Virus record (IMG/VR): IMGVR_UViG_3300037467_002795
Source of the DNA: an uncultured virus (IMG/VR IMGVR_UViG_3300037467_002795)
Lineage: Duplodnaviria; Heunggongvirae; Uroviricota; Caudoviricetes
Length of the DNA stretch: 64,000 nucleotides
Direction: 5' to 3' (one strand)
A program made the position numbers and the translations under genes. Below are positions 183 through 64,000 of the stretch, one piece after another (position 1 is the first letter of the stretch; each line of letters begins with the position of its first letter). The notes below the pieces were generated by a model that saw nothing but the letters and a program-made list of their open reading frames with translations, had not been told where the DNA came from and made no database searches.

Positions 183-241
183 TAAAAACCCTGTGGTTTA
201 CGCCACTGGGATAAAATCGACTTTCCGGCAGAGGAGTTCTT

Positions 242-820
242 ATGAAGAAGATTTTGGCACTTGTGGCAGCTGTTAGCGTCAGCCTCACGGGCTGTGGCAG
301 CCATAGCGGCGGCCCGGTGGTTCAGACCAAATCGGCCTCGGGCGTGTCCCAGACGACGGCCGAGGTCAAGACCGATGAAAAGGGCCACACTACGGAACAG
401 AACAATATTATCGAGCGGCTTAAGCGGGATAACGAGCCGGGTAGTATCAAGCACCTTTATCTGATTTCCGCCCACTCTGGGCAGGTCATTCTGTATAGCC
501 CGGTCAAGGGCAAGGTGACCAGTAGTGGGAAGCGACTGACCCCAACTTCCGTAGCGGCCGGTCAGCATTCGTCGCAGGGTTACAACGAGCTTCCTTACGG
601 GATTCCGGTAAACCTGAGTGGCAATAGATATCGCACGACCGAAGTTTTGCAAGACGACGGGACTTATGGCTCCAGTATTGAGTACCTCTACTGGTTTAGC
701 CCAAACGGTCGATTTTATCAAATTTACCGGTCGGCCGGAACGGAAATTGTGATAAGCGACCAGCCGATTGCCGCCATCAAGAACATTACCATGAACCTCG
801 AAATCACGGAGAAAAAGTGA
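242..820 (+). CDS. Lipoprotein of unknown function
   Basis: Signal peptide MKKILALVAAVSVS with lipobox LTGC; GAGGAG RBS. Confidence 0.75.
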   Translation: MKKILALVAAVSVSLTGCGSHSGGPVVQTKSASGVSQTTAEVKTDEKGHTTEQNNIIERLKRDNEPGSIKHLYLISAHSGQVILYSPVKGKVTSSGKRLTPTSVAAGQHSSQGYNELPYGIPVNLSGNRYRTTEVLQDDGTYGSSIEYLYWFSPNGRFYQIYRSAGTEIVISDQPIAAIKNITMNLEITEKK

Positions 821-1143
821 AAATTACCACTATTACTCTGAGCCGTCTGCGGTCCTACGGCTCCTACGACAACGTGCGGTTCGAAGCCACCGCGGTCATC
901 GACGAAGGAGAATCCGAGCACGATGCGGCCGATGTTCTAGCTCGTTTTGTCGATTTTCAACTCGACAAGCTGGTTGATGGGCAAACTCAACGTGACTATA
1001 CGAAAAATGAGTCTCAGCAACTGGAATGGGATTTGAAAGACAAGAAGGCCGAGCTCGAAACCTTGCAGGAAAAGGCCACGAAGGTAGTCGAATTTCTTGA
1101 ACGGCACGGGGTTAACGGCATCCGGTCTGAACTGCCTTTCTGA
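817..1143 (+). CDS. Hypothetical coiled-coil protein (C-terminal ELPF)
   Basis: 4-bp overlap with the previous gene. Confidence 0.6.
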   Translation: MKITTITLSRLRSYGSYDNVRFEATAVIDEGESEHDAADVLARFVDFQLDKLVDGQTQRDYTKNESQQLEWDLKDKKAELETLQEKATKVVEFLERHGVNGIRSELPF

Positions 1144-1242
1144 TGCCAGAAGCCGCGCAAATTCTGGGGGCCAGTCTTTTTATCGGCTGGCTCTCTTTAC
1201 GCCTCGGACCGCCCTTGTTGTTTATCGGCGACTTCCTCATGA

Positions 1243-1902
1243 ATGGAAGGACCATCCGTGAACATCCTCGAACTACTAAAGAGCCTCCCGCACCATGCGA
1301 GCCCGGGAACTGACTGGCTGTGTAGTGAGCACCAGTACCCTTGGTACGCGAGAGTCTTCCAGACTCTCAGCCCCAAATCCATTTTAGAAATCGGGACATT
1401 TTTGGGGTACAGCCTGGCAACCGCTGCTGTAGCACTGCCGGAACTGGACCGGGTCGAGTGGGTAGATAATGAAGCCTATCTGGAAGGCTCGAACCGACTG
1501 GCCGCCGAGAACATTCGGGTGGCCCGGGAGCGAGCCGGATATCGCCCGCTTATCTCCTGGTCGTGTCGGGAAATTCCGCTCGATGCGGCCGAACGCCAGT
1601 CGTATATGGAACTGGTTCACATCGACGGGGACCATAGAAAGGATTGTGTGCTCCGGGACCTCCAGTATGCGTTTCAGGTCGGCACTTCGTGCATTATCGG
1701 TCACGATTATAAGCTAGAAGGTGGGGTCCGGGAGGCGGTCGTCGAGACCTGCAACAGACTGGACATCCTCCATTATGTGCTGGATGACTTTACTCACGGC
1801 CTGTTCGTGATTCCACTAGTAGACCACGCCAGTGTCTTAATGAAGTTGGCTCGTGCCCGAATCGGGCGGATTTCCGTGATGCCCCCGCATGGGGGTAAAT
1901 AA
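1243..1902 (+). CDS. Class I SAM-dependent methyltransferase (Methyltransf_24-like)
   Basis: ILEIGTFLGYS motif I; LVHIDGDH and GHDY motifs. Confidence 0.85.
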   Translation: MEGPSVNILELLKSLPHHASPGTDWLCSEHQYPWYARVFQTLSPKSILEIGTFLGYSLATAAVALPELDRVEWVDNEAYLEGSNRLAAENIRVARERAGYRPLISWSCREIPLDAAERQSYMELVHIDGDHRKDCVLRDLQYAFQVGTSCIIGHDYKLEGGVREAVVETCNRLDILHYVLDDFTHGLFVIPLVDHASVLMKLARARIGRISVMPPHGGK

Positions 1903-2921
1903 TGGCGAACATCCTGTTTCTGGGCGGTGGCCGGCGAGTTGAGCTTGCCCGCCTGTTCAAGGTTCGTGGTCACGCCATCTTTGGATACGAAACCTCGACG
2001 CAGGTCCCGCTGGCGTCCGAAGCCCAGATAGTTCGTGGTTTGCCCTGGGCCGACACTGGCCTTGCGGCCAGCCTCTCGGACGCATGCAGGGTCCACGGTA
2101 TAGACTTGCTGCTCCCACTGGATTGTCGAGCCGTTGCTGAACTCGCTTCGCTTCGGACTGTAGGCGAGAGGGAACGGACGGCACGCATCGTCCACCGGTC
2201 CGTTTCCGAAAACTTGATGTTTTTGCTCCGGGAGCGATTCGTGGGCCCGGACAACGAAGAGACCGCCACGGCTTGCCTAGATAAGGGTCTGTTCGAGGCC
2301 TTCATCGTAGCCCACTTCGGGTTCGACACGGACCTATACCCGTTTCCGGTCTCGGGGAAGCCGGCCATCATCAAGCCGCGGAGGGGGTTCGGGTCGCGGG
2401 GTGTGATGAAGGTGGGGGCACTAGTGCCCGACAGTGTCCAATACGACGGCGACGAGGATGTGGCTCAGGTGTATTTACCGGGAACCGAGTGGTCGGTCGA
2501 CGCTTACTTCGGTCTGCGAAACGCCGACGGAGCCTCCGGGCTCCTGGGGGCATCCCCTCGCCAGCGTCTTCGGGTGGCCGGCGGCGAGGTCATCGAAAGT
2601 GTGACGGTCGACCGCCCCGACCTGGTCTCGATGACCAAAGAAGTGGGCGAGGCCCTTCGCCTTACCGGCCCCGCATGTTTCCAGTTCAAGGGCGATGTCG
2701 CTAATTCACCTCGTCTTATTGAGGTGAACGCTCGGTTCGGGGGCGGAGCCACGCTGAGCATCGAGGCAGGACTGCCGATGGTAGGCTATGTCTGTGGCGA
2801 GTATCTGGAATGTAGAACCTTTCCTGCCGGAAGTGGGTGTGCCCGTCAGGGCGTGTACATGAGTCGGTCGTATCGAGACCACTACTGGTTTCATTCTGCA
2901 AAACAAGGCGAGGCGATATGA
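1902..2921 (+). CDS. ATP-grasp ligase (carbamoyl-phosphate-synthase-like)
   Basis: NILFLGGGRRVEL, IIKPRRGFGSRG, QVYLPGTEWSVD, IEVNARFGGG. Confidence 0.85.
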   Translation: MANILFLGGGRRVELARLFKVRGHAIFGYETSTQVPLASEAQIVRGLPWADTGLAASLSDACRVHGIDLLLPLDCRAVAELASLRTVGERERTARIVHRSVSENLMFLLRERFVGPDNEETATACLDKGLFEAFIVAHFGFDTDLYPFPVSGKPAIIKPRRGFGSRGVMKVGALVPDSVQYDGDEDVAQVYLPGTEWSVDAYFGLRNADGASGLLGASPRQRLRVAGGEVIESVTVDRPDLVSMTKEVGEALRLTGPACFQFKGDVANSPRLIEVNARFGGGATLSIEAGLPMVGYVCGEYLECRTFPAGSGCARQGVYMSRSYRDHYWFHSAKQGEAI

Positions 2922-3100: not shown

Positions 3101-3459
3101 TGTGTGTTTACAGCATGATTGTCGACCATTATGGCGAGAAGTGGCGGAAAATTATCTCTGAGCCACCGTATGCACCGAGCGTGCCTTTTCCGAATCCTCA
3201 GCCTTTGAAACTTCCGGACATCCTCCCTCCCCTGCCGGAGCAGGGCTCTGGTGACCAGAGTCGACCGTCGGAAAATAACCCGGTCACCCAAGAAGACCTA
3301 GACAAAATTCGACGGGATATTCAGGACTTAAAGGACCTCCTAAAACGGGCCAAAGAATATGACGAAAAGACCGGCCAGCCGGACTGCGAGCTGGATGAGA
3401 AAAAGAGACGGCTAAAGGAAATCGCGGATATGGTCGGAGTGGACATCGAATTCCCCTGA
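3100..3459 (+). CDS. Hypothetical phage protein
   Basis: TAATG coupling; MCVYSMIVDHY...AKEYDEKTGQPDCE. Confidence 0.6.
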   Translation: MCVYSMIVDHYGEKWRKIISEPPYAPSVPFPNPQPLKLPDILPPLPEQGSGDQSRPSENNPVTQEDLDKIRRDIQDLKDLLKRAKEYDEKTGQPDCELDEKKRRLKEIADMVGVDIEFP

Positions 3460-3470: not shown

Positions 3471-4232
3471 ATGGTTAATATTGCCGTCGCGAGTATGTTC
3501 CGGAATTCGGAAGTTTGGCATGGCCGCCAAATTAACCAGGTGGACAAGTTTTTTAACAGCATTCTTGGACAGGAAGGTGGCAGTAAACACTTCGACCTAA
3601 CTTTCCACCTGGTTGAAGGGAATAGCACGGACACCACACTTAAGAAACTGCGTTACTGGCAATCCATCTTTCCCGACATCACCTTGTACCAAAAGCAGGT
3701 GAAGGGGTCAGAAGTCGCAAGCGTGGTGAGCGAAACCCGGTTTAAGAACTTATCGTCAGTTGGGAATGTGGCCCTGCAAGCCGCACGGGATAGCGGAACT
3801 GACTATGTTCTGTGGATGGAATCCGACCTGATTCCACCAGCAAATCTGGCTATCTCGCTCTTACTTCCGTTCATGGAAGAGTCGGCTGAACAAAGTATTT
3901 TTGCTGTGGCTCCAGTTCCGGTCTTTCACCAGGGCGGCCGAAAGCTCTTTTACGACACCTGGGCCTTCGAAGGGTCGGATGGGCAAAAATGGGGGAATGG
4001 AGACCTGGACAAGCTGGTCAAAACCAGCACCTGCCTTCGGTCCATGAACAGTATCGGGTCCTGCGCTTTGCTGAACGGTAGTATTTTGCGGGAACACCGA
4101 CTGGACTTCGGCGAAGGGTGTTTCCCGGCACTATGCAAGTCCGGCAGGGAAGCAGGATATGGGGTTTACTGCGACGTAACGGTTGAGGTCCAACACCCTT
4201 GCAACGAGAACGTCAACGGTCGACTGATTTGA
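3471..4232 (+). CDS. GT-A fold glycosyltransferase (Anp1/GT2-like)
   Basis: VEGNSTDTT, YVLWMESDL (DxD-like), FYDTWAF, SIGSCAL, terminal VQHP. Confidence 0.7.
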   Translation: MVNIAVASMFRNSEVWHGRQINQVDKFFNSILGQEGGSKHFDLTFHLVEGNSTDTTLKKLRYWQSIFPDITLYQKQVKGSEVASVVSETRFKNLSSVGNVALQAARDSGTDYVLWMESDLIPPANLAISLLLPFMEESAEQSIFAVAPVPVFHQGGRKLFYDTWAFEGSDGQKWGNGDLDKLVKTSTCLRSMNSIGSCALLNGSILREHRLDFGEGCFPALCKSGREAGYGVYCDVTVEVQHPCNENVNGRLI

Positions 4233-5874: not shown

Positions 5875-6455
5875 AACCCATTATTTTTTTTGACCTTGAC
5901 GGTGTCTTAGCCGACCTTGTCACCGGTGCTTTACGACACCACAAAGCCACGTTGCCTATTATGGAAGTCCAGTACGACTTTTGCACCCAACTTGGCTTCA
6001 GCGGACATACAGACCCAGCTTTTTGGGACCCTCTCGGATTCAATTTCTGGTCTACTTTGGGTATTTACCCGGACGGTCTCTGTTTGTTGCGTGCGGCCGA
6101 GTCGCTCGTCGGGCCTGACAGCATTGGATTCCTGACTGCTCCGACCAAGTCTCGCGGGTGTGTGGACGGCAAACTGGCGTGGGTCGAGAAGCATTTTCCG
6201 GATTACGTCGACCGGGTCTTTACCGGCAAATCGAAGGAGATGTTCGCCTCGCCCGACAAGATTCTGGTGGACGACTCGGATTTGAACATCGAGAAGTTTT
6301 CCGGCAGAGGAGGGAGGGGTGTGCTTGTGCCGCGGCCGTGGAATCGCAACCGGGCTGGCTGCAATAAGGATGGCTCGTTCAACGTGGTGGTCGCCCACTC
6401 AGAACTCCAGTATGTAGTGCGACTAATCGATTGTTTGCCGGCTCTCAAGGTGTAA
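5871..6455 (+). CDS. HAD-family 5'(3')-deoxyribonucleotidase (NT5C-like)
   Basis: FFDLDGVLAD motif I; KLAWVEKHF; ILVDD; PWN. Confidence 0.85.
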   Translation: MKPIIFFDLDGVLADLVTGALRHHKATLPIMEVQYDFCTQLGFSGHTDPAFWDPLGFNFWSTLGIYPDGLCLLRAAESLVGPDSIGFLTAPTKSRGCVDGKLAWVEKHFPDYVDRVFTGKSKEMFASPDKILVDDSDLNIEKFSGRGGRGVLVPRPWNRNRAGCNKDGSFNVVVAHSELQYVVRLIDCLPALKV

Positions 6456-8147: not shown

Positions 8148-8576
8148 ATGGTAATTGGTGAAGACGACTGGACCCGGTCCCGCTGGCTTACCCACGCCCG
8201 GTGGGAAGCCGACCTGTCAGACGGGACGCTGGCCATCGGGGACGACGACCGGCTGCCGAATTCTTGGGGTCGGCTCAAGCTCTATTGCGAGGCTCGGAGT
8301 CTGACCGTCCGAACGGTCCGGCTCCGGTTCCGCACGAACACGGTCGAGGCCCTGCCCCGCAACGCCGCCGGCTACCTGGTCCGACCCGGGGTCTGGTCGG
8401 ACATGCACGAGCAGGTCACCCGGGGCACGTTCGCGGTGGGTTATCTGGACCCCGCCGTGAACAAGGTCAAGGTGTCTATCTTTTTCGTGCCCGAACTCGT
8501 CCTTTTCCGGCAGGAAGAGCGAGATGTGGGTGACGAGCAGGGTGTCGGGGAGTCCCTCTTGACCAACCCTGTTTAA
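8148..8576 (+). CDS. Hypothetical phage protein
   Basis: Clean ORF with GC-rich third codon positions. Confidence 0.55.
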   Translation: MVIGEDDWTRSRWLTHARWEADLSDGTLAIGDDDRLPNSWGRLKLYCEARSLTVRTVRLRFRTNTVEALPRNAAGYLVRPGVWSDMHEQVTRGTFAVGYLDPAVNKVKVSIFFVPELVLFRQEERDVGDEQGVGESLLTNPV

Positions 8577-8645
8577 GACACTATTATATAGGTACGCACC
8601 GTGACACCCTGATTGACTTCCCTGCCGGAACGGGCGGAGCCGCCA

Positions 8646-11712: not shown

Positions 11713-12126
11713 GTGGCTAATCCTTTTTTCCGGCAGGGAAACATCATGCTGCTGGCGACATTCGGCGTGGAAGATGTCGTCAATCTGGTTCGAACCCTCA
11801 CGGCTCAAGAAGGGCCGCATGAGTCGGTTGTCGTCACCGCCCCGACTTACGCCCAAGCCAAGAAGGTTCTTCGGCAACTGTCGACCGAACTTTTCGGCTG
11901 CAAAGAGCAGGTCACAGTCGAGTTCGACCGCACCTCGCTCAAGGTCTGGAATACGGAGGTCGTGGCTATGTCCCTCGGTCGAGTGGCGGACCTCAAGCCC
12001 GATGTTCTGGTCGTTGTGAATATCTACCAGGTCCCCCGCCAGGTACTCGGCAAAATCCTCGTGTCGCTCGGGGGGTCGCGAGCCGACCTGCTCGCCATCG
12101 GAAAGCACATGGAAATCTGCGGGTGA
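11713..12126 (+). CDS. Hypothetical protein (degenerate P-loop/terminase-like fragment)
   Basis: VVTAPTYAQAK. Confidence 0.4.
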   Translation: MANPFFRQGNIMLLATFGVEDVVNLVRTLTAQEGPHESVVVTAPTYAQAKKVLRQLSTELFGCKEQVTVEFDRTSLKVWNTEVVAMSLGRVADLKPDVLVVVNIYQVPRQVLGKILVSLGGSRADLLAIGKHMEICG

Positions 12127-12130: not shown

Positions 12131-12215
12131 ACACCTCCCTCTCCTGCCGGAACTGCGTTCCGGTCGCCAAAGGTGACTATGGAAGCTTCGCTCCCGTCGG
12201 CGGAGCCAACTGCCG
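12131..12215 (-). repeat. 85-bp multi-hairpin element, intergenic copy A
   Basis: Its reverse complement matches 40504-40588 at 73/85 nt with no gaps. Confidence 0.9.
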
Positions 12216-13739: not shown

Positions 13740-15197
13740 ATGCCTGATGAGCTTTGCGACGTCTGGTCTGAGCGGGCAATTTTGGGGGCCTGCTTCCGGT
13801 ACGGAGCAGATGTCTTTATTGACGTGGACGATTTGGTTACCGACCGCTCGTTCACGGTTGATAGCAATAGGACCATCTTCAAGTGCCTGCGACACCTGTT
13901 CGGCCAGGACCCCGAATGCGTGCCGGATGTCCCGTCGATTTTATCCGCAGCTCGGGCCATCGGACTTGAAACGGTGTTTGAGGACGCGGAAGAACTCAAG
14001 CATCTGCGGGCGGTTCTGAATACGCCGGTCGAAAAAAACAATGCTCGCAAGCTCGCGGCGAAGGTCCGCAAGCTGGAAGTCGCTCGGGCCGGGCTCGAAA
14101 TCGGCGACCAAATCAAGGACGGGCTGCTGAAGGTCACCGGGGACGAGTCGGTCGCGGCCATCCTGAACCTGCTCGAGGCCCCCGTCTTCGAATTCGTTAA
14201 CGGTCTCGCCAAGGACCAGCAGGACGGCCCGAAACCCATCGGGGCCGACATTGACCTGTTCCTGGCCCACCTGGAGCAGCATCCAGTTGACCAGATGGGG
14301 CTGCCTCTGGGCCTGCCGAACTGGGAACGGGCAGTCGGGGGCGGAGCCAGGCCGGGCACACTGAACGTGTTCGGAGCTCGTCCAAAAACCGGGAAAACTT
14401 CCCTGGGTTTGAATATTGGAAGGTTTGTTGCCTCGCAGTTGAATTTGCCTGTCCTCTACCTCGATACGGAGATGACCGACAAGGACCACAAGGTCAAGAT
14501 GCTGGCCGCCCTGTCCGGGGTCCCCATGAAGACCATCGAGACGGGCAAGTTCGCGAGCACGGAGGAGGGACGACAGAAGGTGGCGGCAGCGGCCGACGTT
14601 ATCCGCCCGATGCCGTACGAGCCACTGAGCATCGCCGGGCAGCCGTTCGAGGAGACCGTGGCGATTATGCGGCGGTGGCTGGTCCGCCGGGTTGGGCTCG
14701 GGTCGGACGGCAAGGCCAAGCCCTGCCTGATTATTTTTGATTATCTGAAGCTGATGGAGGCCTCGGGGCTCTCGAAGCACCTCCAGGAGTTCCAATTACT
14801 GGGCTTCATCATGACCGGCCTGCACAACTTCGCGGTCAAGTATGGGGTGCCCATTGTCCTGTTTGTCCAGCTCAACCGGGACGGCATTGAGGCCGAAAAC
14901 TCGACGGCCGCTTCCGGCTCGGACCGCATCATTTGGCTGTGCAGCAACTTCACGATTTTCAAGCCGTTGACCGACGAAGAAATGGCCGACCAAACGGGCC
15001 GCAAAAAAAAGTTCAACCGCAAGTTCAAGGTCTCGGAATGTCGTCATGGGCCCGGACTCGACGGAGATGATTTTATTTACGTGGACTTCCAGCGGGACTG
15101 CTGCCTGATTACCGAGGGCCCCACGGTCAACCAGCTGCGGGCGAGCGACCCGACCAAACCGTTCTCGGTCGATGGGGGTGCGGATGTCGCGTTCTAG
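13740..15197 (+). CDS. dnaB: Replicative DNA helicase DnaB
   Basis: ERAILG, GARPKTGKT, YLDTEM, IIFDYLKL, QLNR, CRHGP. Confidence 0.92.
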   Translation: MPDELCDVWSERAILGACFRYGADVFIDVDDLVTDRSFTVDSNRTIFKCLRHLFGQDPECVPDVPSILSAARAIGLETVFEDAEELKHLRAVLNTPVEKNNARKLAAKVRKLEVARAGLEIGDQIKDGLLKVTGDESVAAILNLLEAPVFEFVNGLAKDQQDGPKPIGADIDLFLAHLEQHPVDQMGLPLGLPNWERAVGGGARPGTLNVFGARPKTGKTSLGLNIGRFVASQLNLPVLYLDTEMTDKDHKVKMLAALSGVPMKTIETGKFASTEEGRQKVAAAADVIRPMPYEPLSIAGQPFEETVAIMRRWLVRRVGLGSDGKAKPCLIIFDYLKLMEASGLSKHLQEFQLLGFIMTGLHNFAVKYGVPIVLFVQLNRDGIEAENSTAASGSDRIIWLCSNFTIFKPLTDEEMADQTGRKKKFNRKFKVSECRHGPGLDGDDFIYVDFQRDCCLITEGPTVNQLRASDPTKPFSVDGGADVAF

Positions 15198-16341
15198 CCA
15201 TCACCGCTTCTCGGATGTCGACCATGCGAGACTGAGTCTCTTGGGAGAACTCGCGTCCTACAAGACCGATGAGCTACTGACGCAACTGGACGTGCGGTGT
15301 CGGCGAACTGGCAAGTTGTACCTGGGTCCCTGCCCTGTTCATGACGGCGACCGGGCAAACGGCTGGAATTTTTACCCGGACGGGCACACGACGCGGGGCG
15401 TTTGGTATTGCCGGACCCGCGAGTGCCACAAGACGTTCGTCGGGGACATCCCGGGCTTGGTCCGCGGGATTCTGTCCCGGCGGGACCTGGGGTGGGAACC
15501 GGGGAGCCGCAAGCTTGTCCCGATGACGGAAGTCATCCAGTACCTGTGCGGGTTCGTCGGCCAGAGCTGGGACAGTCTCAAGGCAGACCTGGTGGCGGCC
15601 GAGAAGCGGCGGTTCGTGGCGGACATGGCGGTCCTGGGGCGGGCGGTAGAGACGCGAAGTGAGGGCTGGGACCCCAAGGTCGCCCGGGACCGGCTGTCGA
15701 TTCCCTCCCAATATTTTTTGAAGCGGGGGTGTTCCCGCGAGGTTCTCGAGCGGTATCTGGTGGGCGAATCCCGCGCGACGGACCCTGGTGCCGAGATGTA
15801 TCAGAGGGCGGTGGTCCCCATTTTTGACCGGGAAGGCCGGCGGGTGGTCGGGGGGACTGGACGCAGTGTGTGGGAGTGCTGCGCACGCTGTCGCCTCTGG
15901 CACAATCCCGAAGAGGGTTGTCCGTCCGGTGCGACGAGCGAAGCGAGAAGCACCAAGTGGAGACATAGCCGCGGATTCCCCGTCGAGCACACGCTGTATA
16001 ACTGGTGGGCGGCTCGCGAGCCGATTCGGACCCTGGGGCGGGTGGTCCTGGTCGAGGGCCCGCTCGATGTGCTCAAGCTCGAGATGGCCGGGGTGCGAAA
16101 CTCGGTCGCCCTCTTCGGGGTGAATCTCAGCGACCCCCAGCAGGTTTTGCTGGAAGGCTCCGGGGCCCACACGGTCATCCCCCTCCTGGACTCGGACCCC
16201 GCGGGGGCGGCCGGACGGGCGAACCTTATCAAGGAACTGCGTCGGTCGTTCCGGGTTCGGGCAGTTGAACTGCCGGGTAAGGACCCCGGGGATATGACTG
16301 CCGAACAGATTCGGGCCGAGCTAATTCCCCTGATTTCTTAG
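15184..16341 (+). CDS. dnaG: DNA primase (CHC2 zinc finger + TOPRIM)
   Basis: CPVHDGD...WYCRTREC; VLVEGPLDV; LDSDPAG; KDPGDM. Confidence 0.9.
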   Translation: MSRSSHHRFSDVDHARLSLLGELASYKTDELLTQLDVRCRRTGKLYLGPCPVHDGDRANGWNFYPDGHTTRGVWYCRTRECHKTFVGDIPGLVRGILSRRDLGWEPGSRKLVPMTEVIQYLCGFVGQSWDSLKADLVAAEKRRFVADMAVLGRAVETRSEGWDPKVARDRLSIPSQYFLKRGCSREVLERYLVGESRATDPGAEMYQRAVVPIFDREGRRVVGGTGRSVWECCARCRLWHNPEEGCPSGATSEARSTKWRHSRGFPVEHTLYNWWAAREPIRTLGRVVLVEGPLDVLKLEMAGVRNSVALFGVNLSDPQQVLLEGSGAHTVIPLLDSDPAGAAGRANLIKELRRSFRVRAVELPGKDPGDMTAEQIRAELIPLIS

Positions 16342-17122: not shown

Positions 17123-17277
17123 CTTGGGGTGAGTTCAAGCAATACTTGGCCGACCACGACGTGAAGGACTCGGACCCCATCTGGTATATAGACATTTCCC
17201 TGCCGGAACTCGAGAGTGTGACGAGGGAACCGACCGTAGTGGTTGACACCCAACTGGGGGTTGGGGTACACAATTGA
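17119..17277 (+). CDS. Small hypothetical protein (MTWGEFK...)
   Basis: ATGA overlap and GGAG RBS. Confidence 0.45.
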   Translation: MTWGEFKQYLADHDVKDSDPIWYIDISLPELESVTREPTVVVDTQLGVGVHN

Positions 17278-18517: not shown

Positions 18518-19009
18518 ATGGACCTCGATACTTTTCAGGCCAAGGTTCGCGAGACGGCGGCTTACCCCAGCGAAGCTTCGGTGGTTTACCCCGTGCTGGG
18601 CCTGGCGGGGGAAGCCGGTGAGGTCGCTGAAAAAGTCCGGGCTGCCCTCTTCCCTGCCGGACCTCCGACCGACTGGTCAGATATTTCCTGCCTGTTGAAG
18701 GAGCTCTACCGGTCATTAACCGAGGCTATGAACGCCGGCCGCCAGTGCGAACACCTCAAGAAGCGACTGCGGGACCGCACGGACAAGCTCCCACGGGGGT
18801 TCCTGGACGCTTTGGCCGGACTGGTTTCCCAGATTTCCGAGGATGCCAAGGTCGGAATCTTGAAGGAAGTCGGCGATGTGTGCTGGTACGGGCCTTCGGT
18901 CATCCACGACGTAGGTTCGACTCTCGAGAAGGTCTGTCAGGAGTTACTCGACAAGCTGGCCTCGCGGAAGGCTCGCGGGGTGATTGGGGGGTCGGGCGAC
19001 AACAGGTGA
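18518..19009 (+). CDS. MazG-like nucleotide pyrophosphohydrolase
   Basis: LGLAGEAGEVAEK, KEVGDVCWY, KLASRKARGVIGGSGDNR. Confidence 0.85.
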   Translation: MDLDTFQAKVRETAAYPSEASVVYPVLGLAGEAGEVAEKVRAALFPAGPPTDWSDISCLLKELYRSLTEAMNAGRQCEHLKKRLRDRTDKLPRGFLDALAGLVSQISEDAKVGILKEVGDVCWYGPSVIHDVGSTLEKVCQELLDKLASRKARGVIGGSGDNR

Positions 19010-47645: not shown

Positions 47646-48209
47646 GCAGTTCCGGCAGGGAAGGGAGTAGTTCGGTGTATTTTCCTGTGGATACTGTCTA
47701 AACGCCACAGGGACCAACCATGACCTCTCAACTCCTTCCGCCTAACTCACCGGATGACGCGGAGGGATGCCTGCACCGAACCGTCATATCCCTCCAGGTC
47801 GACGACGACGTGCCAGTGACCCCGGTGCGGCGGGGCCATCTTCACCGGGCTGACCAGAGCCAACCCACCGCGAAACTCGTACGAGTCCCCGCGGTCGTAT
47901 TTGGCGAACTCGTGGTGCTCCAGAAGGCGGACGTTGGCCTGCTTATCGAGGCTGATTTCGATGACGCTTTCTGGGCCAATAATTCCCAAGTCGCGGTGCA
48001 GATAAACCATCATGACACGCCCTGGGGTGACGGTCAGTTCGCCTGACGGGTAACGCCGGCACTATTCCGGCCGTCCTCGTATCGGCATGACAACACGGCG
48101 AGTGTAACGAGAACTTATGGTCGACGCCAGAAAAAACTTGTCGTGACGGCGGAGAGGCCGACCGGAACGCAGTTCCGGCAGGAAAGGGAACAAGGGTAGT
48201 CCGGTGTAT
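47646..48209 (+). repeat. Direct repeats (47646-47680 and 48169-48209) flanking the DUF1883 gene
   Basis: GCAGTTCCGGCAGG(G/A)AAGGGA...GTAGT(T/C)CGGTGTAT occurs twice. Confidence 0.75.
47747..48013 (-). CDS. DUF1883-domain protein
   Basis: YLHRDLG..ANVRLL..F..Y..G..GG..SPV..P..GHWHVVVDL.G. Confidence 0.75.
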   Translation of the reverse strand: MMVYLHRDLGIIGPESVIEISLDKQANVRLLEHHEFAKYDRGDSYEFRGGLALVSPVKMAPPHRGHWHVVVDLEGYDGSVQASLRVIR

Positions 48210-48252
48210 GAGACTGGCACAGACTATGTCTATTTCCTGCCGGAAACTATAA

Positions 48253-49043: not shown

Positions 49044-49316
49044 TCATTTAGAACCCGAATGTCCGTCCGTTCGTCCCTGGACCGGCACGCGGGCCCAGGT
49101 CCCGGTCGGCAGGGCGAACACGGTGCCGTTTTCGGCCGCGAAGAAGTCGAGTTCCCCAGTCGAGTCGGGCTCAAGAGAACGGACCCTGAACACCTCTCCT
49201 GCCGGAACATCGACACTGTCCCAATCAGGCATACTGTTCACGAAGGCCTCAGGCACAAGCAGAACCGAAGCGGGGACGAGCAGGACGAGCGTGAACATCG
49301 GGCGGGTCCTCGGCAA
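49044..49316 (-). CDS. Small hypothetical protein with a hydrophobic N-terminus
   Basis: Lies downstream of a leftward promoter; start uncertain. Confidence 0.35.
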   Translation of the reverse strand: MPRTRPMFTLVLLVPASVLLVPEAFVNSMPDWDSVDVPAGEVFRVRSLEPDSTGELDFFAAENGTVFALPTGTWARVPVQGRTDGHSGSK

Positions 49317-51182: not shown

Positions 51183-51382
51183 TGAGCGAAGAGGTTTTTG
51201 TTGAGTTGTGGAATCGAGCAGAAACTTTTGAAGACGCCTGCCGCAGTATCGCCGAGTACGCCCGCAGCCACGGTCTTCCCGACCTACCCAAGGTGAAAGT
51301 CGCCGCCCGCGTGGCCGAGTATAGGCTTCGCGGGCTGGAATTAAAAAGGCAGGTTTCCGGCAGGTCGGCTCCGCCGACGTGA
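51182..51382 (+). CDS. Small HTH-like hypothetical protein
   Basis: TAATG coupling; FVELWN..YRLRGLELK. Confidence 0.5.
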   Translation: MSEEVFVELWNRAETFEDACRSIAEYARSHGLPDLPKVKVAARVAEYRLRGLELKRQVSGRSAPPT

Positions 51383-51387
51383 CGAAG

Positions 51388-52017
51388 TCAGGCCCGACCA
51401 TCCCCTGGGGACGAACCGGGCGTGTATTGCCAGTGCAGCTCGACAAGAGGGCCGAAGTCGTTCTTGTCGGCCGCCCGGATGGCCGAAAGGTACGTCGCTC
51501 GGATGGGGCTCACCTCACCCATCTGGGGCTCGGGCCAAACCGTGGGGTGGGCTCCGTGTCTCCGAAGCCAAATGTTCGCCAGCATCCGCGACCACCGACC
51601 GTTGCCGTTCAAGAAAGGGTGGATTTTGACCGCCCGGTAGTGCAGGAGGGCGGCGTCTTCGACTAGCGAGAAAGGGCCTTTTCCCCAGTAGGGGATGGTT
51701 TCGACGAGGTCTAGAACCTGAGCCTCCACGTCGTAGAACCGACATCCTAAGTTCAGGTCGCACTTCCTGGGAGTACCAGCCCAGGCCCAGACCTGTCCGA
51801 ACATCTCCTTGTGCAACCCGAACACCCAGTCGAAGGTGAACGGGGCTTCGGCCGGCCTCAGCCGACCCACCAAGTATTTTGACGCGGCGACGGCGATATT
51901 TTCCGCCTCGACCTGGTTTAGTTGGCGGCGGGTTCCGACCCAGGGCAGGAGCAACCCGGACACGTCGTCGATGGGTGTTTCGCCGGGAACATGCCCCCAG
52001 TCAATTTTAGTCGTCAT
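51388..52017 (-). CDS. Fic-domain protein (mobile mystery protein B)
   Basis: GETPID, LHKEMFGQVWAWAG, HPFLNGNGRWSR. Confidence 0.88.
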   Translation of the reverse strand: MTTKIDWGHVPGETPIDDVSGLLLPWVGTRRQLNQVEAENIAVAASKYLVGRLRPAEAPFTFDWVFGLHKEMFGQVWAWAGTPRKCDLNLGCRFYDVEAQVLDLVETIPYWGKGPFSLVEDAALLHYRAVKIHPFLNGNGRWSRMLANIWLRRHGAHPTVWPEPQMGEVSPIRATYLSAIRAADKNDFGPLVELHWQYTPGSSPGDGRA

Positions 52018-55400: not shown

Positions 55401-58400
55401 GGGATTACCTTCGGCCTTATCCTTGTTAGTTTTTATCGAGTCGAGACTTTGCCGTTCTTTCTCCAGCAAACTCGAAATACCGCTGACGTCCTCGTTACGG
55501 AGCCCAGTCCCCGCCAACAACCGGGACTGTCGAGCTTCGTGCGGTGCGGTCAGGTCTTCGAGCGATAAAAACCGACTCGCGTCACCACCCCCCAGGCGTT
55601 CCGACCGGCTCACCGCCAGGGCCCGCGTGAGCCCCAGACGAGCTTCGGCAAGTCGGTCCTGTTCGGAGCCGACCGTGCTCGCGTTCTGCCGCACGGTGGA
55701 TAGGCCGGTCGCATAGGCCAGGTTCGCCTCCTGGATGCGGCGGGCAATCTCCTGGCTGTAAGCCGCAGCCTTGGCGTTATCGACGTTCAGGTTTTTGGCC
55801 GCCCCCTGCGTATCGTGCCCGATGTAGGGCAGGGCGTTCCCGCCGTGTTGCTGGTCCAGTTTCCGGACCTGAGAACTGACGTTCGCGATTGCCAGCCGCA
55901 GTTCCGGGTTCTCCTTCAGGGCCTTCTCCCGAGCCTCGTCCGACATTTCCGGCAGGAGAGATTCCCGCAGGCCCTTCTCGACCCGCGTGTGCGTCGTGTG
56001 CTCGGTCGAATTCCCTTCCCGGACGAGCTGGTCCAGAACGCTGGGCAGAATTCGGGCGATGTCGTCGGCGGCCTGACTGCTCCTGACCAGTCCCTTCCCT
56101 GCCGGACCGAGCATTCCCCCGACCACGCCGAGGGCCTCGCGGAAGCCGCCCGGGTTGGGGGCCCCGAGAATACCCAGGTTGTTCGCGTAGTTCGGGGCAC
56201 CCACGGGCGTGTGCCCGCCAAACGCGAGCATTGGTAAATCTAGTTTGGTCTTAAAATCATTCAATGATGCAGAAACGGCATCGAACGCCACGACCAGCCG
56301 ACCCGCCGAGTGCGCCTGCCGCTCGCTCACCACCCGGGCGTCCTCTACGGCCTTCTGGCCGGCGAAGTTTCGCTGGGCCTCACGCACGTCCTGTGCCATT
56401 TCGTTTAGGATTTTTGCCAGCGGCACATTGCGGATGTCGGCAACCACTCTCAGCAGTTCACCCCGGACGCCCTTATTGAGTTCGTCCACCAACTCCTCGG
56501 GCCTCGCCTCCGGCCGGGCCTTGGCCAGTCCGGTCGCTTCGGACGACAAAATACTGGCGAACCCACCCGCTTGGTTCGCGAGGGCTTTGCGGAGTTCGAG
56601 AGTCTGCGCCTTGGCCAACACGTCCGAGTCCGGCGTTTTCCGCCAGAAACTGCTCGAATTTTCGAACGCCCGCGTGGTCGCGGCTGCTCGGACCTCCCGA
56701 ATATCGCTGATGATGCCGTACCGGTTGGCGCTCATCAGGCCTTCCTTGCCCTCGACCACCCGCCGCAAATTCTCGTTGAGGTGTTCGGTGGCGTTCGCCG
56801 CCTTGGCCTCGGCCAGGTTCTTCGAGGCGTCCTTTAGAGAGGTCGTAAACCCGTAAACCGCCCCGATGGCTCCGCCGATAGCCGCCCCCCACGGGCCGAA
56901 CACCATCCCCACGCCGGCTCCCATCGCGCCGTACTGGAGGGTCCCACCCGTCACCGTTTGGTTCGTAAAAGAGGATTCGGCACCACTGTTGCCGACCGCC
57001 CTCGCCGCCGCTCCGTCTTCCGGGCTGAACGCCTGACCGATGAGCGGAGCGGCCATCATACCGGCGTAAGCCGCCCCCGCCCCGCCACTTCCCCGGATGC
57101 GACCCAGGGCACCCGACCCGACGGACACGACTCCGGCCGCCTGTCGACTCAGCCAGCCCCCTTGTCCCAGTCGGTCGGCCAGCCGCCCGAACCGCCCCCG
57201 GCCACTTTCATCAATCGTGCCGCTGAACCAGCTCCGCCGGGTCGTTTCCGTAATCTGTTGACCCAGGTCGGCGAGCCCGACAACTTTCCCGTTCCTGTTT
57301 CGAATCACCTGGGCGTTCGTCCGGTACGCCTCTGCCGCCATTTCCTCGGCGATGGCCAGTCGTTCTTGGGCCTTGAGGGCGGGGGCCAGTGTCTGAAGCT
57401 GTCGACGAATCCCCGCGGCTAACTCATTCTGGGCCTTTGAGACCTCTCGACCGGCTAGGTTGGCGGTCGCAGCGGGGGCCAGGCCGCCCAACCGGTGCAT
57501 CTGGGCCGCATCCAGGGACGTAGCCCCGCGGGCATTGGCGATATCGGCGAATCCGAGTCCGGTCGGACTGAGCGGCCGGTCCCGGAACCGTTCCCCGGCC
57601 AGGAGGTCGTTCAGGCGGAGACGGGCCCTGAAGGTATTGACGGCACCGTCACCGGGACCGTTCGGCGGGGCCACCGCCGGCAGACGCCCGGCCAAGAAAT
57701 CGCGGACCGTCAGCGGGTTATAGGCCACCGACCCGCCCGGCCGGTACTGAGTTTCACGGTGTCGGTACGGGGACGGTTCCCCCTCGACACTCAGGAGGGA
57801 CGCAGCCGCGTTCGGCGTGATGGGGCGGCCGGGAGCATTTCCGAAACCGTACGTGGGTCCGACCGGACCGGGTTCGCCCGGCCGGTATCCGGGGCGGTTC
57901 GTCGGGGACTGGCCGCGTCCGATGGCCGGCATGAGGCCGTACGGGGCCGGGAACAAACCCGTTTTGGGAGAGGACGGGGATTCGACCCACGGGTCCGTCC
58001 GGAAGCCGATGGGGGACCCGGCGACCGGGTCCCGCAAATTTCTCATTTCCCGCCGGAATCGCCGTTCCACTTCCTTTTCGGCGTACCCCGGGATGACGGC
58101 CCCCCGGCCCCCGCTCAGGTGGACGTAGCCGGGCGGCAAAGACGGGACGTGAACGAGCGGGTACGACGGCCTGTCATTATTTGACGGAGCCGGACTTCCG
58201 GCAGGAGAGGGAGGGGCCGGCGGTGGGGGCGGAGGCAACGGCGGCTGGCTCCCCGAAGTGGCTGGACCAGTTCCGCCGGCCTTTCTCGCCTTCAGCCACG
58301 CCGTGAGGGAGGCCGGGTTGCCCAACTGGACGCCCGCCGTGTCCCCGGTCGTATACGCGGCAGTTCCCTTGAGGGCCGCCTGGCGAATTTCATTGGCCTT

Positions 58401-61400
58401 CGCCTTGCGACGGGCCACTTCCTCCTCGGTCCTGCGGACCTCGTCGGCACTCAGTCGCTGGAGGGCTTCCTCCGCGGCGGCCGGGGCATGCCGCTTGTGC
58501 GAATCGGGGTTGTTCTCGGCACTGGTCAGGCTGACGCGACTGAGGTTTTTGCCGCCGAGCCGCCCGGCACCGTAGTGCTTGTTGAGTTCGTCCTTGACCT
58601 TTCGCTGGGCGGCCCGGAATATCAAGGCATTAATATTGCCCTTCGAGGGGTCGTACCCGACCATCACGGTGCGGGCCGCGTCGTGGACGGCCCCCAGGGC
58701 GTCTTCCCGGCCGAACGTGGGGTGATTGCGGCTGAGGTTGGCCGCGAACCGCTCCAATAACCCAGGGTTCTTCTCCAGGTACTGGGTGAAAACGTCCCGC
58801 TGATTGTTAGTGAGGGCGGTCCGGGTTTTCGGCCGAGCCCGGCTCGCGAGTCGGCCCAGAACCGCCTGAATCTGGTTATCGCCCTTCCCGGTCAGGAAGT
58901 CCGCATGGGCTCGGGCGAATCCCTCCTTGTCCGAGTACAGGTACTGGGATTCTTTTTCGCTCAGGATGCGGCCCGCCTTCAGCATCTTTTCGCGGGTCGC
59001 CACCACGTTAGCCTGGGCCACCTGCCTGGCACTGTCGTCACTGAGCGAGGCCGCCTTGCCGCCGCCCACCTTATAGTCGACCGCGTGCCCCAGCTCGTGG
59101 GCGAGCACCTCACGAAGTTCGTCGGCCGTCTTGATGCGGTCCTGGTTCAAGAACAGGTTCCCGCTCTTGTTGGCGTACCCGCCTCGGGCCACCTTCCCGG
59201 GCTGGACCGCCAGCGAGCGATTGAAGAGAGCCAGGGTCTCTTGGTCCAACCCTCGGTGGTTAACAATAAGACGCTTGAACAGACTCTTATAGTCAATGCC
59301 GGTCTTTGTTTGAAACTCTTGGAGGATGCTGTTGATATTGGCTTCGGAGACGACCCCACTCGCCCCGGCACTAATCAAACCACCGTCGGCGAACCGGGGA
59401 AGTCGGCCCGTCCGGTTCATGTAGCGGACGCGGTTAATGCCTAGTCCTTGGACTGCGTTGCGGTTCAGTACGAACTCGCCGTCCTGCGCAAGAATTTCGA
59501 CACTATCAACGCCCCGAGTTCCGCCCCGTACCTGCCCGCCGCCCGCGAACTTCCGCTGTGGTTTTAGGCCGAGTGGAGAACCTTGCACGACGGCGACTTG
59601 ACTGCGTTCGGTCTGGCGCCGCTGGACGTATTCCAGTAGGTCGTCCTGGCCCACGCCCGTGGCGAGCGAGAGAGAAGACACGAGCTCGGCGACCCGCTCT
59701 CGTTTGCCGAGCGTCCGCCCCACTTTGCGGCCGACCGCAGCCACACCGCGACCGACGAACCCGCCGAAAGCGTACCGCGGGAATCGACCCGTGCGGTTCA
59801 GTTCCTCGACCCGCCCCCGCCCCAGTCGGTCCACCGCGGCCTTCCGCAGCACATACTCGCCCTCCTGGGCCATGATGGGGACACTGTCGACGCCGGGGGT
59901 GCCGCCGTGGACCGGTCCGCCGGCCGCGAAGCGGCGGGTCGGAGCCCGCGACGACCCGTACAGTTCGGGGGTCAAAACACCCGCCGCGAACCGCATCGAC
60001 CCGCCCATCAACCGCCCGATGCCCAGGGCTGCGACTACCGGCAGGAGAGGGCCCAGGGCCTTGACGAGTTCGGCCGCCGCCGTCGCCGCTGTGGTGAGCC
60101 CGTCAGCTAGCTTTTTGAATCCACTCGACTGGACCAAATCATTACCAAGCTGCTGGTAAGTCTCTTTGATTTTGGTCAATTTTGTCAACAAGGCATCCTG
60201 GCGAACGGCCGCGGCTGCCTCGATGGACGCACTGCCGAGCCGGGCCACGTTCAGGGCTTTTTGGGCTTCGCCGAACTGCTGGATGAGGGGCAGGACCCTG
60301 CTCACCTGCCGGATGCCCCCCAAATCTTCGACGACTTGCGCGTACCGTGGGTCGGTGGACCGTAACTTACTGAGGCCTTCCGAAAGTCGCTGTACGGCCC
60401 GGAATTGGCCCACAAACTGGTCGGTCAAATCTTCCTGGCCGAGGGCCTTGGCCTCTTCCTTAGTATAGCGAAGATTAATACCTAACTGTTTTAAATTCTC
60501 TATAGTATCAGAGCGTTGCACGTAAGTGAATATACTTCGGAGCCCGGTCGCGATTTGGTCGGCCGATTCCCGCGTGGTTGCACGAATACTTGTAAATAGT
60601 GCAAGAAGCTCATTCAATTGCCCGCCAGCCGTAGCAAACGCACCACCACTTTTTTGCACGGCAGTGATTAGGTCTTGGCTTTCCGTTGCGAAGGTCGCGG
60701 CGACCGCATTTACCGAACCCAGCTGGTCTTTCAGTTTTTCGGTGTCCTTGCCGAACTGCTGAAAAATCGCCAGCATCCCCTCCGTGGTTTTGCGGGCGTC
60801 CGCGAAGGACGGACTGGACAGGGCGAGGGCCAGTGTCTCGACCGCCTGGGCGCTCTGACGAGCATTGAGGCCAGCCTGCACGAATGCTTCGGCCCCAGCC
60901 GCCAGGTCCCGACTCGCCACACCGTATGTGGTAGACAGTCGGCCAATCTCGGCCCGTAGACGAGACACGCCCCTCTGTCCATCGTCTGACACTTGCAATA
61001 GTTTATTCATCGCAAGGTCGAACTGAACTGCTTCTCGCCCGACTGCTTTTAGGGCGTTGACGGCCGCGAACATCCCACCGGTCGCCACGCTGAACGCGAC
61101 AAATCTGCGTCCAGCAAGCGACACTTGCCGACCAAAGTTCGTTACCGTATCTGAGGCCTCCGCGTAGGCGGCAGACGCTCGGCGGGCCGCTCCGGCAGAG
61201 GTGGTCAGGCTTGCGACCGACGCCTGAGCCAGCGGGTTCACCCGGGCGTAGGCGGTCGCCATCTGACTGACTCGACTGGTCGCAGACGCCAGTTCCCCGC
61301 TCAGGCCTCGCGTGGCCGTCCGTAGGGCGTTCATGTTCTGGGCGAGCGAAGCAATCTCGCTCTTGGCACGCGGCGAAATCTCGAGGTCGATTTTTGCCGA

Positions 61401-62478: not shown

Positions 62479-62491
62479 TTCAGGAGGCATT

Positions 62492-63121: not shown

Positions 63122-63135
63122 TGGCAACCACCAAC

Positions 63136-63166
63136 AAAAAAAAAGAGGAGGGATGGTCCCTCCTCT
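63136..63166 (-). terminator. Intrinsic terminator on the minus strand
   Basis: A-run followed by AGAGGAGGGA tgg TCCCTCCTCT (stem plus U-tract on the minus strand). Confidence 0.75.
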
Positions 63167-63196
63167 CCCGACCAACCATCAAGGTAGGTCGTCTGG

Positions 63197-63550
63197 TCAA
63201 ACCCCGGGTTGTGCTTCGTATAATTCAACCGCCCGCCCGTCCGGGTCCCGAATAATCGCGCAGGGGCCCCACGAAGTCTCTTGGTGGGAACTAATAATTG
63301 GAGTTCCCATACCATCCAACTTGTTCACCACAGTTTCCAGCCCGAGAACCCCAAACCCGAGGCGAGTGTCGTCGGGTGTCCGACCCGACGACGACGGGTA
63401 GAGTTCGAACACGAGGTCACCCATCTCGGCCGCATAATGCAGTGGTCCTGAACCGTGCCGTTCGGCCTTGAACTGGAAACCGAGTATTTCATAAAAAAGT
63501 TTCGCTCTTTCGAGATATTCGCTTCGCAGAACTAGCAATCGCAGCTTCAT
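63197..63550 (-). CDS. VOC/glyoxalase-family protein
   Basis: LERAKLFYEILG, LGFGV, WG..IRDPDGRAVEL. Confidence 0.88.
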   Translation of the reverse strand: MKLRLLVLRSEYLERAKLFYEILGFQFKAERHGSGPLHYAAEMGDLVFELYPSSSGRTPDDTRLGFGVLGLETVVNKLDGMGTPIISSHQETSWGPCAIIRDPDGRAVELYEAQPGV

Positions 63551-64000
63551 TGCGTGCTCACCCAGTCGTCCTCGACCTCAAACATCTCGGTCTCGCCCCC
63601 GTCGCTCTTTTCCGGCAGAGGATTGCCGTCTTCCCCGACCGGATTCTCCTCCACGTCACACAAGTTCCCCTGCCGGTCCACCAACGCCAGGTCCTTGTCC
63701 CGAATCATTTTATGACGAAGCAGGAACTGATTCTCAACAAGATTCCGCTCGTCCGCGTCCGGGTCGTACCCGAAGTACAAGTTCGCGAACTCCTCGGCCG
63801 CCTTCAGGGTGTCCGGGTCCCCGCCGCGGGCCTTGTAGTCCTCGACGTCCTTGAAATAAGCCTTGCCCGTGTCGGCCACCTTGACACACCGGCTGGCCAG
63901 GAAGTTGAACCGGTCCTGATTGGCGAGCCCTTCGGCGGTCAGCGACTTGAGCCGCGTAAAATCGTTCAGGAGGCGGACCCGCTCGACCCGGGCCACCCGC
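63547..64000 (-). CDS. Partial protein, candidate tail assembly chaperone
   Basis: Same strand as and upstream of the TMP; ENQFL..LVDRQGNLCD; 5' end outside the window. Confidence 0.5.
   Translation of the reverse strand, partial: RVARVERVRLLNDFTRLKSLTAEGLANQDRFNFLASRCVKVADTGKAYFKDVEDYKARGGDPDTLKAAEEFANLYFGYDPDADERNLVENQFLLRHKMIRDKDLALVDRQGNLCDVEENPVGEDGNPLPEKSDGGETEMFEVEDDWVSTQ

Follow-up and report, generated by a model that had tools for sequence, protein, structure and literature searches.

The 64,000-nucleotide stretch of uncultured virus DNA studied here (IMG/VR record IMGVR_UViG_3300037467_002795, referred to below as the window) carries many copies of a short asymmetric motif, TCCGGCAGRRR. 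The evidence supports the conclusion that the motif is a specific recognition signal, which is neither a product of chance nor the trace of a protein motif, and comparison with related sequences supports its assignment to a clade of phages and not to a particular host. More tentatively, we propose that the motif could be an extended lagging-strand priming signal of the phage's own replisome, a reading suggested by its sequence and distribution that we hold to be plausible and short of probable.

The motif and its coding context

An exact search of the window found 39 copies of TCCGGCAGRRR, 20 on the plus strand and 19 on the minus strand, whereas dinucleotide-preserving shuffles (n = 100) gave a mean of 0.45 and a maximum of two copies. 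A sequence-only reading of the same DNA had listed 36 copies in balanced orientation and had expected less than one by chance. The balance as a count and the chance expectation agree with our figures, and all 36 coordinates were recovered (its minus-strand coordinates are the start of the 11-mer minus 5); three copies had been overlooked, at 24862..24872 and 29240..29250 on the minus strand and at 61191..61201 on the plus strand. Its count of eleven copies of the full 16-mer, TCCGGCAGRRRAGGGA, was also correct (7 plus, 4 minus). The octamer core, TCCGGCAG, is present 45 times in the window (23 plus, 22 minus) and is the most frequent octamer of the phage, at about one per 1.3 kb.

Over 61 kb, the window matches part of a viral contig of 100,338 bp (G002) at 99.2% identity, and a 41-kb contig (G003) is a variant at 93–98.7%. 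The 11-mer occurs 63 times in G002 (29 plus, 34 minus), where the reversed control gave no copies, and 25 times in G003. The 100-kb contig showed no host flank, neither integrase nor partition genes turned up in the 100 kb examined, and searches found no tRNA genes and no phage record similar at the DNA level. Eleven DNA runs from soil or rhizosphere contain the sequence. The window belongs to a soil siphovirus of about 150 kb and is not a demonstrable prophage; since it matches a viral contig without host flank, integrase or tRNA genes, the earlier framing of a resident phage set against a host chromosome does not apply as written.

The motif logo reads (T)TCCGGCAG-G-R-R-A-G and is asymmetric. 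Around the 45 cores of the window, T was found at position -1 in 28 and G at +9 in 36; positions +10 and +11 were purines, and A at +12 and G at +13 were found in 35 and 34 cores, respectively. No second conserved position was seen beside these cores, from 20 nt upstream to 30 nt downstream. The core was all-or-none: TCCGGCAGG was present in 62 copies in G002, whereas changing any one of its first eight bases gave 24 variants with 0–5 copies each, near expectation. The purine run starting at the A of CAG was at least 7 nt long in 56 of the 78 G002 copies, compared with 4.4% of all CAG starts, and its most common length was exactly 7. Read on the other strand, the motif becomes 5'-pyrimidine run-CTG-CCGGA(A)-3', the complement of the core being CTGCCGGA in 78/78 G002 copies. 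When G003 was compared with G002, motif positions differed at 4/294, versus 3.7% elsewhere, and six sites were unchanged within surroundings that had diverged by 7–14%.

Genes were placed by our own crude calls, which are approximate and missed some AT-rich genes. According to these calls, 36 of the 45 cores lie within genes, 17 in sense (2, 8 and 7 in frames 0, 1 and 2) and 19 in antisense (10, 9 and 0). The proposal that the copies are mostly intragenic, are read in several frames and encode no protein motif was thus borne out; a protein-motif reading was rejected because five of the six frame and strand classes are used. Synonymous codons were then permuted within each gene, every protein being kept. 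The 45 observed cores of the window, nine of which lie in unshuffled DNA, compare with 16.6 ± 2.7 after shuffling (200 shuffles, maximum 25), the 39 copies of the 11-mer with 10.1 ± 1.4 (maximum 14), and the 78 cores of G002 with 35.3 ± 3.0 (100 shuffles). Since the shuffle leaves some cores, the signal is partly carried by amino-acid sequences, which leave most of the excess unexplained. The enrichment therefore survives a codon-preserving shuffle, the control that the sequence-only reading had suggested.

No overall association with gene boundaries was found (median distance to any boundary, 136 vs 200 nt, P = 0.07). The earlier remark that copies sit beside starts or promoters is true of single cases (224, 11729, 19058 and 48234) and not of the motif in general. 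A promoter reading was rejected, because half of the copies are antisense in a unidirectional gene block and no second conserved block lies nearby. AT-rich islands contained few cores: none at 9833–10633 or 61627–63121, one at 19097–19801 and two at 48253–51382. The earlier reading had seen no copies of the 11-mer in the AT-rich HNH genes or the Fic cassette; the one core in the HNH gene at 19097–19801 is a core-only copy.

Strand-specific spacing and variants in relatives

Orientation is mixed along the whole of G002, where the 78 cores are divided 35:43. On the plus strand, the coefficient of variation of the gaps was 0.65, compared with 0.96 in simulations (P = 0.005), and the largest gap was 7.3 kb, compared with 11.6 kb (P = 0.02). 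Similarly, on the minus strand the coefficient was 0.77 vs 0.97 (P = 0.05) and the largest gap 6.9 vs 9.9 kb (P = 0.06). When the strands were pooled, the regularity disappeared (0.95 vs 0.98, P = 0.42; largest gap 5.1 vs 6.3 kb, P = 0.20). The mean same-strand gaps were 2.8 and 2.3 kb. Among neighbours at most 200 bp apart, 8 pairs were convergent, 5 divergent and 1 tandem, where about 2.3, 2.3 and 4.6 were expected. Each strand is regular and the pooled set is not, which argues for a reader that tells the two strands apart and acts both ways, as opposed to an orientation-neutral mark. The balanced numbers on the two strands had earlier been taken for direction-free reading, which fits neither this spacing nor the close pairs, inverted and not tandem.

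These data bear on another idea, in which a double-strand DNA-binding protein conserved in the clade recognises the motif; it could be a repressor or roadblock of the stoperator kind, organise the genome or serve for self-marking. The inverted close pairs would be expected if monomers of such a protein pair, two copies lie between or beside promoter-like hexamers (19058 and 48234, minus strand), relatives have variants of the site and the phage encodes helix-turn-helix (HTH) proteins. On the other hand, regularity per strand without pooled regularity is unexpected for an orientation-neutral binder, no cloud of near-consensus sites was found, the covarying hairpin-split composites described below point to a single-stranded form, and neither integrase nor partition genes accompany the sites in the 100 kb examined. 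The length, asymmetry and density of the motif resemble those of Cluster A stoperators, which parts of PMC4351075 describe as mostly intergenic and oriented with transcription. Both sites are asymmetric, measure about 13 bp, are present in tens of copies across the genome and keep their sequence with high fidelity; however, our cores are not intergenic (36/45 in genes) and, with 17 in sense and 19 in antisense, are unrelated to transcription. The same passages attribute to Cluster O phages more than 30 dispersed 17-bp repeats with dyad symmetry, about one third of them in genes and without a link to promoters (PMC4351075). Here too, dispersed copies number more than 30 and some are in genes, whereas the present motif has no dyad symmetry and is asymmetric and strand-specific. 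The binders that had been suggested (XRE at 49504, HTH at 7663 and 51182) are in part located in a cassette that is AT-rich and was probably acquired recently, and nothing ties them to a signal conserved in the clade. Taken together, we consider a double-strand binding protein unlikely.

Relatives of the phage were found via terminase (45–68% identity) and an aminotransferase; their loci are 17–23 kb long. The related terminase is also encoded on contigs of 176–184 kb represented in the protein collection. Plain k-mer counts gave no signal in the relatives, and one appeared once degeneracy was allowed in the purine run. GCA with at least seven purines after it was observed 65 times in G002 (23.9 in simulations), 90 times in G008 (30.5), 12 times in L178 (4.6), 8 times in L179 (2.4), 13 times in L192 (4.0) and 23 times in L182 (10.0), and GCA ranked 1–4 among the 64 trinucleotides ahead of purine runs in 7/14 sequences. 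In L178 (38% GC; terminase 63% identical), T[CA]AGCAG+R5 was present eight times (4 plus, 4 minus), compared with 0.14 in simulations, and in L179 (71% GC; terminase 61% identical) CCGGCAGG was present 13 times (5 plus, 8 minus), compared with 3.3. G008, a complete sequence of 39% GC with terminal repeats, has 51 copies of TnAGCA+R6 (32 plus, 19 minus), irrespective of gene direction, and those on the plus strand are regularly spaced (P = 0.02). The template trinucleotide stands in the context CTGC in L178 and L179 and TTGC in G008 and L192. The architecture that recurs in these relatives is T-T-Y-(N)-R, GCA(G) and purines, on both strands. As variants are kept at 38%, 39% and 71% GC, the signal is a property of the phage clade that is not imposed by one host.

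The earlier suggestion that the site belongs to the phage agrees with these variants and with the absence of enrichment among 1,103 sampled bacterial genomes. In 401 Acidobacteriota the 13-mer reached at most 15 copies per genome (a tally that includes three unpublished genomes), in 401 Pseudomonadota the 15-mer, which would miss an excess of the octamer only, reached at most one, and in 301 Planctomycetota the maximum was nine. In the two top Acidobacteriota genomes the matches were scattered and the octamer occurred once per 4–5 kb; no over-representation of the octamer was found in 360 kb of G377 (z ~0). The octamer alone is found once per 4–8 kb in GC-rich bacteria. A bacterial genome collection scanned with TCCGGCAGGNNAGGGA gave at least 120 assemblies, with one match each among the matches listed. 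Ten viral contigs outside the lineage share the 16-mer, with 1–4 copies of shorter patterns, and a literature search for the motif string matched only unrelated primer sequences. Separately, an unrelated 25-kb viral contig of 49% GC (G818, L199–L200) contains six TCCGGCAG cores, five of them on one strand, where about 0.7 were expected; their extensions are inconsistent.

The host counts are also relevant to a Chi-like signal, which would switch a helicase-nuclease, of the host RecBCD/AddAB type or encoded by the phage, from degradation to recombination and would be needed in both orientations since ends arise anywhere. The strict core and its rank as commonest octamer, at one per 1.3 kb, speak for such a signal, regular spacing per orientation would then reflect selection against long unprotected stretches, and the hairpin insertions right after the core could mark frequent 3' ends. 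Chi sites are over-represented in the chromosome of the host and favour its leading strand. A Chi sequence is, however, defined by the host enzyme, whereas the variants span three base compositions and probably different hosts, and none of the three bacterial groups sampled showed enrichment. In addition, the information extends over 13–14 nt, more than in any known Chi, and the phage itself encodes a RecA-like recombinase and an exonuclease. In lambdoid phages, an own recombination module goes with few Chi sites. Chi occurs more often than any other octamer in the phages LLS (23 sites, one per 1.86 kb) and P1 (50 sites, one per 1.9 kb), and polarities of 20:3 and 32:0 are given for Chi-rich phages in the sections of PMC12315714 that deal with them. 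The present phage shares with LLS, P1 and MD8 a strict most-frequent octamer at about one per 1.3–1.9 kb; it differs from them in its balanced orientation (35:43 in G002, where known Chi-rich phages are strongly polar), in the length of the site, in its variants across GC contents and in its own recombinase. We therefore regard a Chi-like role as quite unlikely.

The DNA uptake sequences of Neisseria (DUS) and Pasteurellaceae (USS) are likewise non-palindromic 10–12-mers found about once per kb, in both orientations and all frames, with frequent inverted pairs. Those are signals of host genomes, dense in hosts that are competent, whereas the present one is found in a phage clade, is not enriched in the 1,103 sampled genomes and is regular per strand. 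GGGAAGGG matches the pattern of the E. coli FtsK-orienting polar sequences (KOPS); this candidate was set aside, as GGGAAGGG is present in only some copies and polarity is lacking.

Hairpin composites and the proposed priming signal

Six of the G002 cores lack the purine extension and are followed instead by two or four tandem perfect 15-nt hairpins (6-bp stem, 3-nt loop). Three of these composites are in the window, all on the plus strand: 36869..36920, with a core, two 15-nt triloop hairpins and ACCGGAGAGGGGGAG; 40502..40580, with a core, four hairpins and a second full motif (40568); and 51356..51392, with a core and two hairpins, without the 3' purine half. In all six copies, the insertion begins exactly after base 8 of the core. 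A CAGGAGAGGGAG-like sequence follows the hairpins in three of the six, and in two a second full motif follows, the TCCGG of which is the last hairpin arm. When the six composites were aligned, 95.8% of the cells were paired, compensatory changes were seen in 6/12 pairs and the covariation score was reached by 0/500 shuffles; coming from six sequences, the covariation is suggestive. The frame in which the composites are read varies, as does their strand with respect to the genes, which argues for a constraint on the nucleic acid, most simply on single-stranded DNA. The other 72 of the 78 cores are solitary 13–14-mers without flanking repeats. One composite falls in a variable linker of the portal-like gene, where there are about 14 extra residues compared with the closest relatives. 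No Rfam family reached the gathering score in the window. As a separate observation, G002 contains 87 perfect triloop hairpins (stem of at least 6), compared with 33.5 ± 6.7 in Markov simulations; many of these fit GTYGRC-NNN-GYCRAC, and many are arranged in tandem pairs of 15 nt.

The motif could instead be the site of a strand-specific nick or another enzymatic mark made by a phage endonuclease. The recognition is all-or-none, as for an enzyme, and the site is strand-specific; snap-back synthesis from a 3' end could produce the palindromic insertions that six copies have after base 8, three of them with CAG repeated at the far end, and at least four HNH endonuclease genes are present in the window. 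T5-like and some Pseudomonas phages have fixed single-strand interruptions. These HNH genes are, however, AT-rich and homing-like and are not known to be common to the relatives that carry the signal, and convergent copies 35–39 nt apart on opposite strands would risk double-strand breaks, so a nick site seems to us improbable.

Alternatively, a small mobile or templated element might have left the copies as its footprints or ends, one example being a miniature that bears hairpins and is tied to the IS200/IS605-type TnpB of the contig. The copies would then have no function for the phage. The existence of the composite hairpins, the excess of triloops, the TnpB fragment at G002 3–665 and the extra residues in the portal-like linker are in keeping with such an origin. 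Against it, nearly all cores (72/78) are solitary, copies in conserved genes use all frames and show no evident insertion, spacing is regular per strand, the sites diverge less than their flanks, and relatives whose base composition differs greatly retain a variant. We consider this origin highly improbable.

For the lagging-strand priming signal that we prefer, the replisome would consist of a DnaG-type primase, a DnaB-type helicase and a DnaE polymerase. The proposed reader is the product of the DnaG-type (Toprim) primase gene at 15172..16341 on the plus strand, and its partner that of the DnaB-like replicative helicase gene at 13740..15197 on the same strand; we infer from sequence both the primase as reader and priming at the sites. 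On the complementary strand, in single-stranded form, the primase would meet the signal as 5'-(C/T)n-CTG-CCGGA(A)-3'. It would begin at the T of this CTG, the purine-rich RNA primer pppA-G-G-R-R-A-G... would be identical to the 3' half of the motif, and the strict CCGGA(A) would be an uncopied 3' flank that holds the enzyme. With sites every ~2.3–2.8 kb per strand, either strand might be used as lagging-strand template. The composites, with their core and tandem hairpins, may be stronger starts of the single-strand-initiation type: in all six copies the hairpins lie immediately 5' of the CTG on the template strand, and insertions directly after the core would fit a place where DNA or RNA ends arise. 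The complementary-strand origin of phage G4 has a hairpin-plus-CTG layout, which the composites recall.

According to parts of PMC2978363, DnaG of E. coli, Yersinia and Pseudomonas starts on d(CTG) at the middle base and makes pppAG primers, initiation trinucleotides fall into the classes CTG, CTA or TTA, and the choice among them depends on residues in the zinc-binding domain of the primase; the template trinucleotide of the present motif is of the CTG class, at the predicted start. Okazaki fragments are given as 1.5–2 kb in E. coli and 1–6 kb in T7 in passages of PMC8599759 and PMC12839067, and the under-dispersed gaps of 2.8 and 2.3 kb are of this scale on each strand. In T7, a 10-nt 3' flank is reported to select about 26 strong priming sites per genome, 1–6 kb apart (PMC12839067, in part). 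Like the T7 sites, the motif combines a strict part that would be uncopied and 3' with a looser part that would be copied and 5', at intervals of a few kb, and some copies have hairpins beside the start, as single-strand initiation signals do. It is unlike known primase sites in its 13–14 specified bases, in being the commonest octamer and in a signature of selection on both strands. The phage primase aligns over its full length with that of G008 (33% identity). The spacing, the CTG, the purine run, the conserved primase and the composite hairpins all appear to fit a priming signal.

Several points weigh against it. To our knowledge, known DnaG-type primases need only a trinucleotide, and there is no precedent for five or six fixed bases that are not copied. 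The phage primase lacks any domain beyond those of its counterpart in G008, which has the looser signal. Close inverted pairs are in excess (13 vs about 4.6 expected within 200 bp), which priming does not predict, and a priming role does not explain the copies inside promoter-like sequence (19058 and 48234, minus strand). Among the relatives, enrichment of GCA with purines is absent in 7/14 sequences (ranks 14–54), including G009 and G010, and the minus strand of G008 has no regular spacing (P = 0.35). Additionally, since the patterns in the relatives were chosen post hoc and the loci are short, the simulated P values are optimistic, large as the effect sizes are.

Sites, neighbouring genes and implications

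The sites in the window were located by exact pattern search, and the cores were also placed by the gene calls. The first copy, TCCGGCAGAGG at 224..234 on the plus strand, lies 8 nt ahead of the ATG at 242. Copies of the full 16-mer include 6300..6310, 42406..42416 and 58197..58207 on the plus strand and 3229..3239, 43014..43024 and 56096..56106 on the minus strand, the last of which is convergent with a copy within the tape-measure gene (55948..55958, plus). Further copies are at 4140..4150, 27131..27141, 33761..33771, 36189..36199, 45073..45083 and 63611..63621 on the plus strand, and at 2821..2831, 17197..17207, 18651..18661, 26636..26646, 32901..32911, 36497..36507, 37591..37601, 40291..40301, 41537..41547 and 49196..49206 on the minus strand. 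Core-only copies were found on the minus strand at 1435..1442 (without the purine run), 19437..19444 (within the AT-rich HNH gene) and 60306..60313.

Other copies have distinct surroundings. The plus-strand copy at 8506..8516 is convergent with that at 8619..8629 (minus), which has TTGACT ahead of it on the plus strand. On the plus strand, 11729..11739 lies in the gap behind the RecA-like gene, 20870..20880 within the gene for the N-terminal part of DnaE and 47651..47661 directly behind a gene of 985 aa. Hairpins adjoin several copies: at 12141..12151 (minus), TTCCGG is the 3' arm of CCGGAAC-GCA-GTTCCGG; the same hairpin accompanies 48174..48184 (plus); GTGAAC-GAA-GTTCAC lies immediately upstream of 19022..19032 (plus); and GGACC-GAA-GGTCC overlaps the 5' end of 32471..32481 (plus). 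The copy at 48174 is convergent with 48234..48244 (minus; 60 nt), which is followed by ACTATAAATG on the plus strand, and the copy at 19022 with 19058..19068 (minus; 36 nt), which lies between TTGACC (19051–19056) and TATAAT (19072–19077), upstream of the HNH gene at 19097. The whole of 19051–19077 is promoter-like, with a spacer of 15 nt that holds the reverse motif and is one base below the minimum of our promoter scan. Two copies, in 47647–47683 and 48169–48212, share a downstream block, GTAGTYCGGTGTAT, 16–22 nt past the core.

Replication genes of the phage comprise a split DnaE polymerase, the DnaB-like helicase, the DnaG-type primase and a single-stranded-DNA-binding protein, and recombination genes a RecA-like recombinase and a PD-(D/E)XK exonuclease. 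The two parts of DnaE, at 19806–21845 and 23395–25005, are separated by genes for a uracil-DNA glycosylase-superfamily protein (21842–22402) and an RNase_T-type exonuclease (22634–23398). Structural genes encode a terminase, a portal-like protein and a tape-measure protein of 3,067 residues (52431–61634, minus), which implies a very long tail. ThyX and ribonucleotide reductase are encoded as well, together with two deoxynucleoside monophosphate phosphatases or nucleotidases (5871–6455 and 8613–9401) and many sugar-nucleotide and glycosyltransferase genes. Sugar-modifying sets were found at 1243–5371, 26590–29510, 32933–33613 and 38032–41802; they include a methyltransferase, an ATP-grasp protein, a GT2 glycosyltransferase, a perosamine-synthetase-like aminotransferase and several GT1/GT4 enzymes, as well as a nucleotidyltransferase, a GT9 heptosyltransferase-like protein, a PfkB kinase and a mannosyltransferase, and their target may be the cell surface, the virion or DNA.

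Four free-standing HNH genes are AT-rich (45–47% GC) and lie at 9833–10633, 19097–19801, 61627–62478 and 62492–63121; the second, just upstream of DnaE, has a C-terminal HTH. A Fic/DOC-domain gene followed by an HTH_3 gene (51388–52459, minus) stands beside the AT-rich block 48253–51382, which also holds an XRE-type HTH gene (49465–49752); the Fic/HTH region and this block look like an acquired cassette. In G002 (L018), positions 3–665, at the start of the contig, encode the C-terminal part of a TnpB/Cas12f-like (IS200/IS605 OrfB) protein, and a motif copy lies 45 nt past its stop. Sub-threshold matches in G002 at 11338–11886 and 4505–6139 were to an extracytoplasmic-function-type sigma-70 (E = 9e-6) and to DndB/DGQHR (E = 9e-6, 2e-4).

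Genome-wide short repeats are already known in phages, as stoperators, Cluster O repeats and the sites of Chi-rich phages, and extended priming sites are now discussed for T7. In open-access full text, we found no description of the present combination, an asymmetric, mostly intragenic 13–14-mer that is balanced and yet regular per strand, with hairpin versions and lineage variants; that such a signal has never been described is not proven. As a point of method, balanced orientation need not mean orientation-neutral function, and signals intrinsic to a phage can be told from those that a host imposes, such as Chi, by spacing statistics per strand and by the degenerate versions that relatives carry.

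Why primases pass over most trinucleotides is stated to be an open problem in parts of PMC8599759 and PMC12839067. If the reader is not the primase, the motif would still be an undescribed strand-specific cis-signal of a phage DNA-processing machine. It is conceivable, though we would not call it probable, that a clade of large environmental siphoviruses uses a long priming code of 13–14 nt, in which Okazaki fragments would start every 2–3 kb on both strands and in all coding frames, the uncopied flank would drift between lineages with the replisome and some starts would be provided with hairpins. The preferred site would then be long and strict, number in the dozens and bear a visible mark of selection on each strand. 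If this reading is true, a natural genome would offer a ready-made system for testing how a primase chooses among thousands of trinucleotides.

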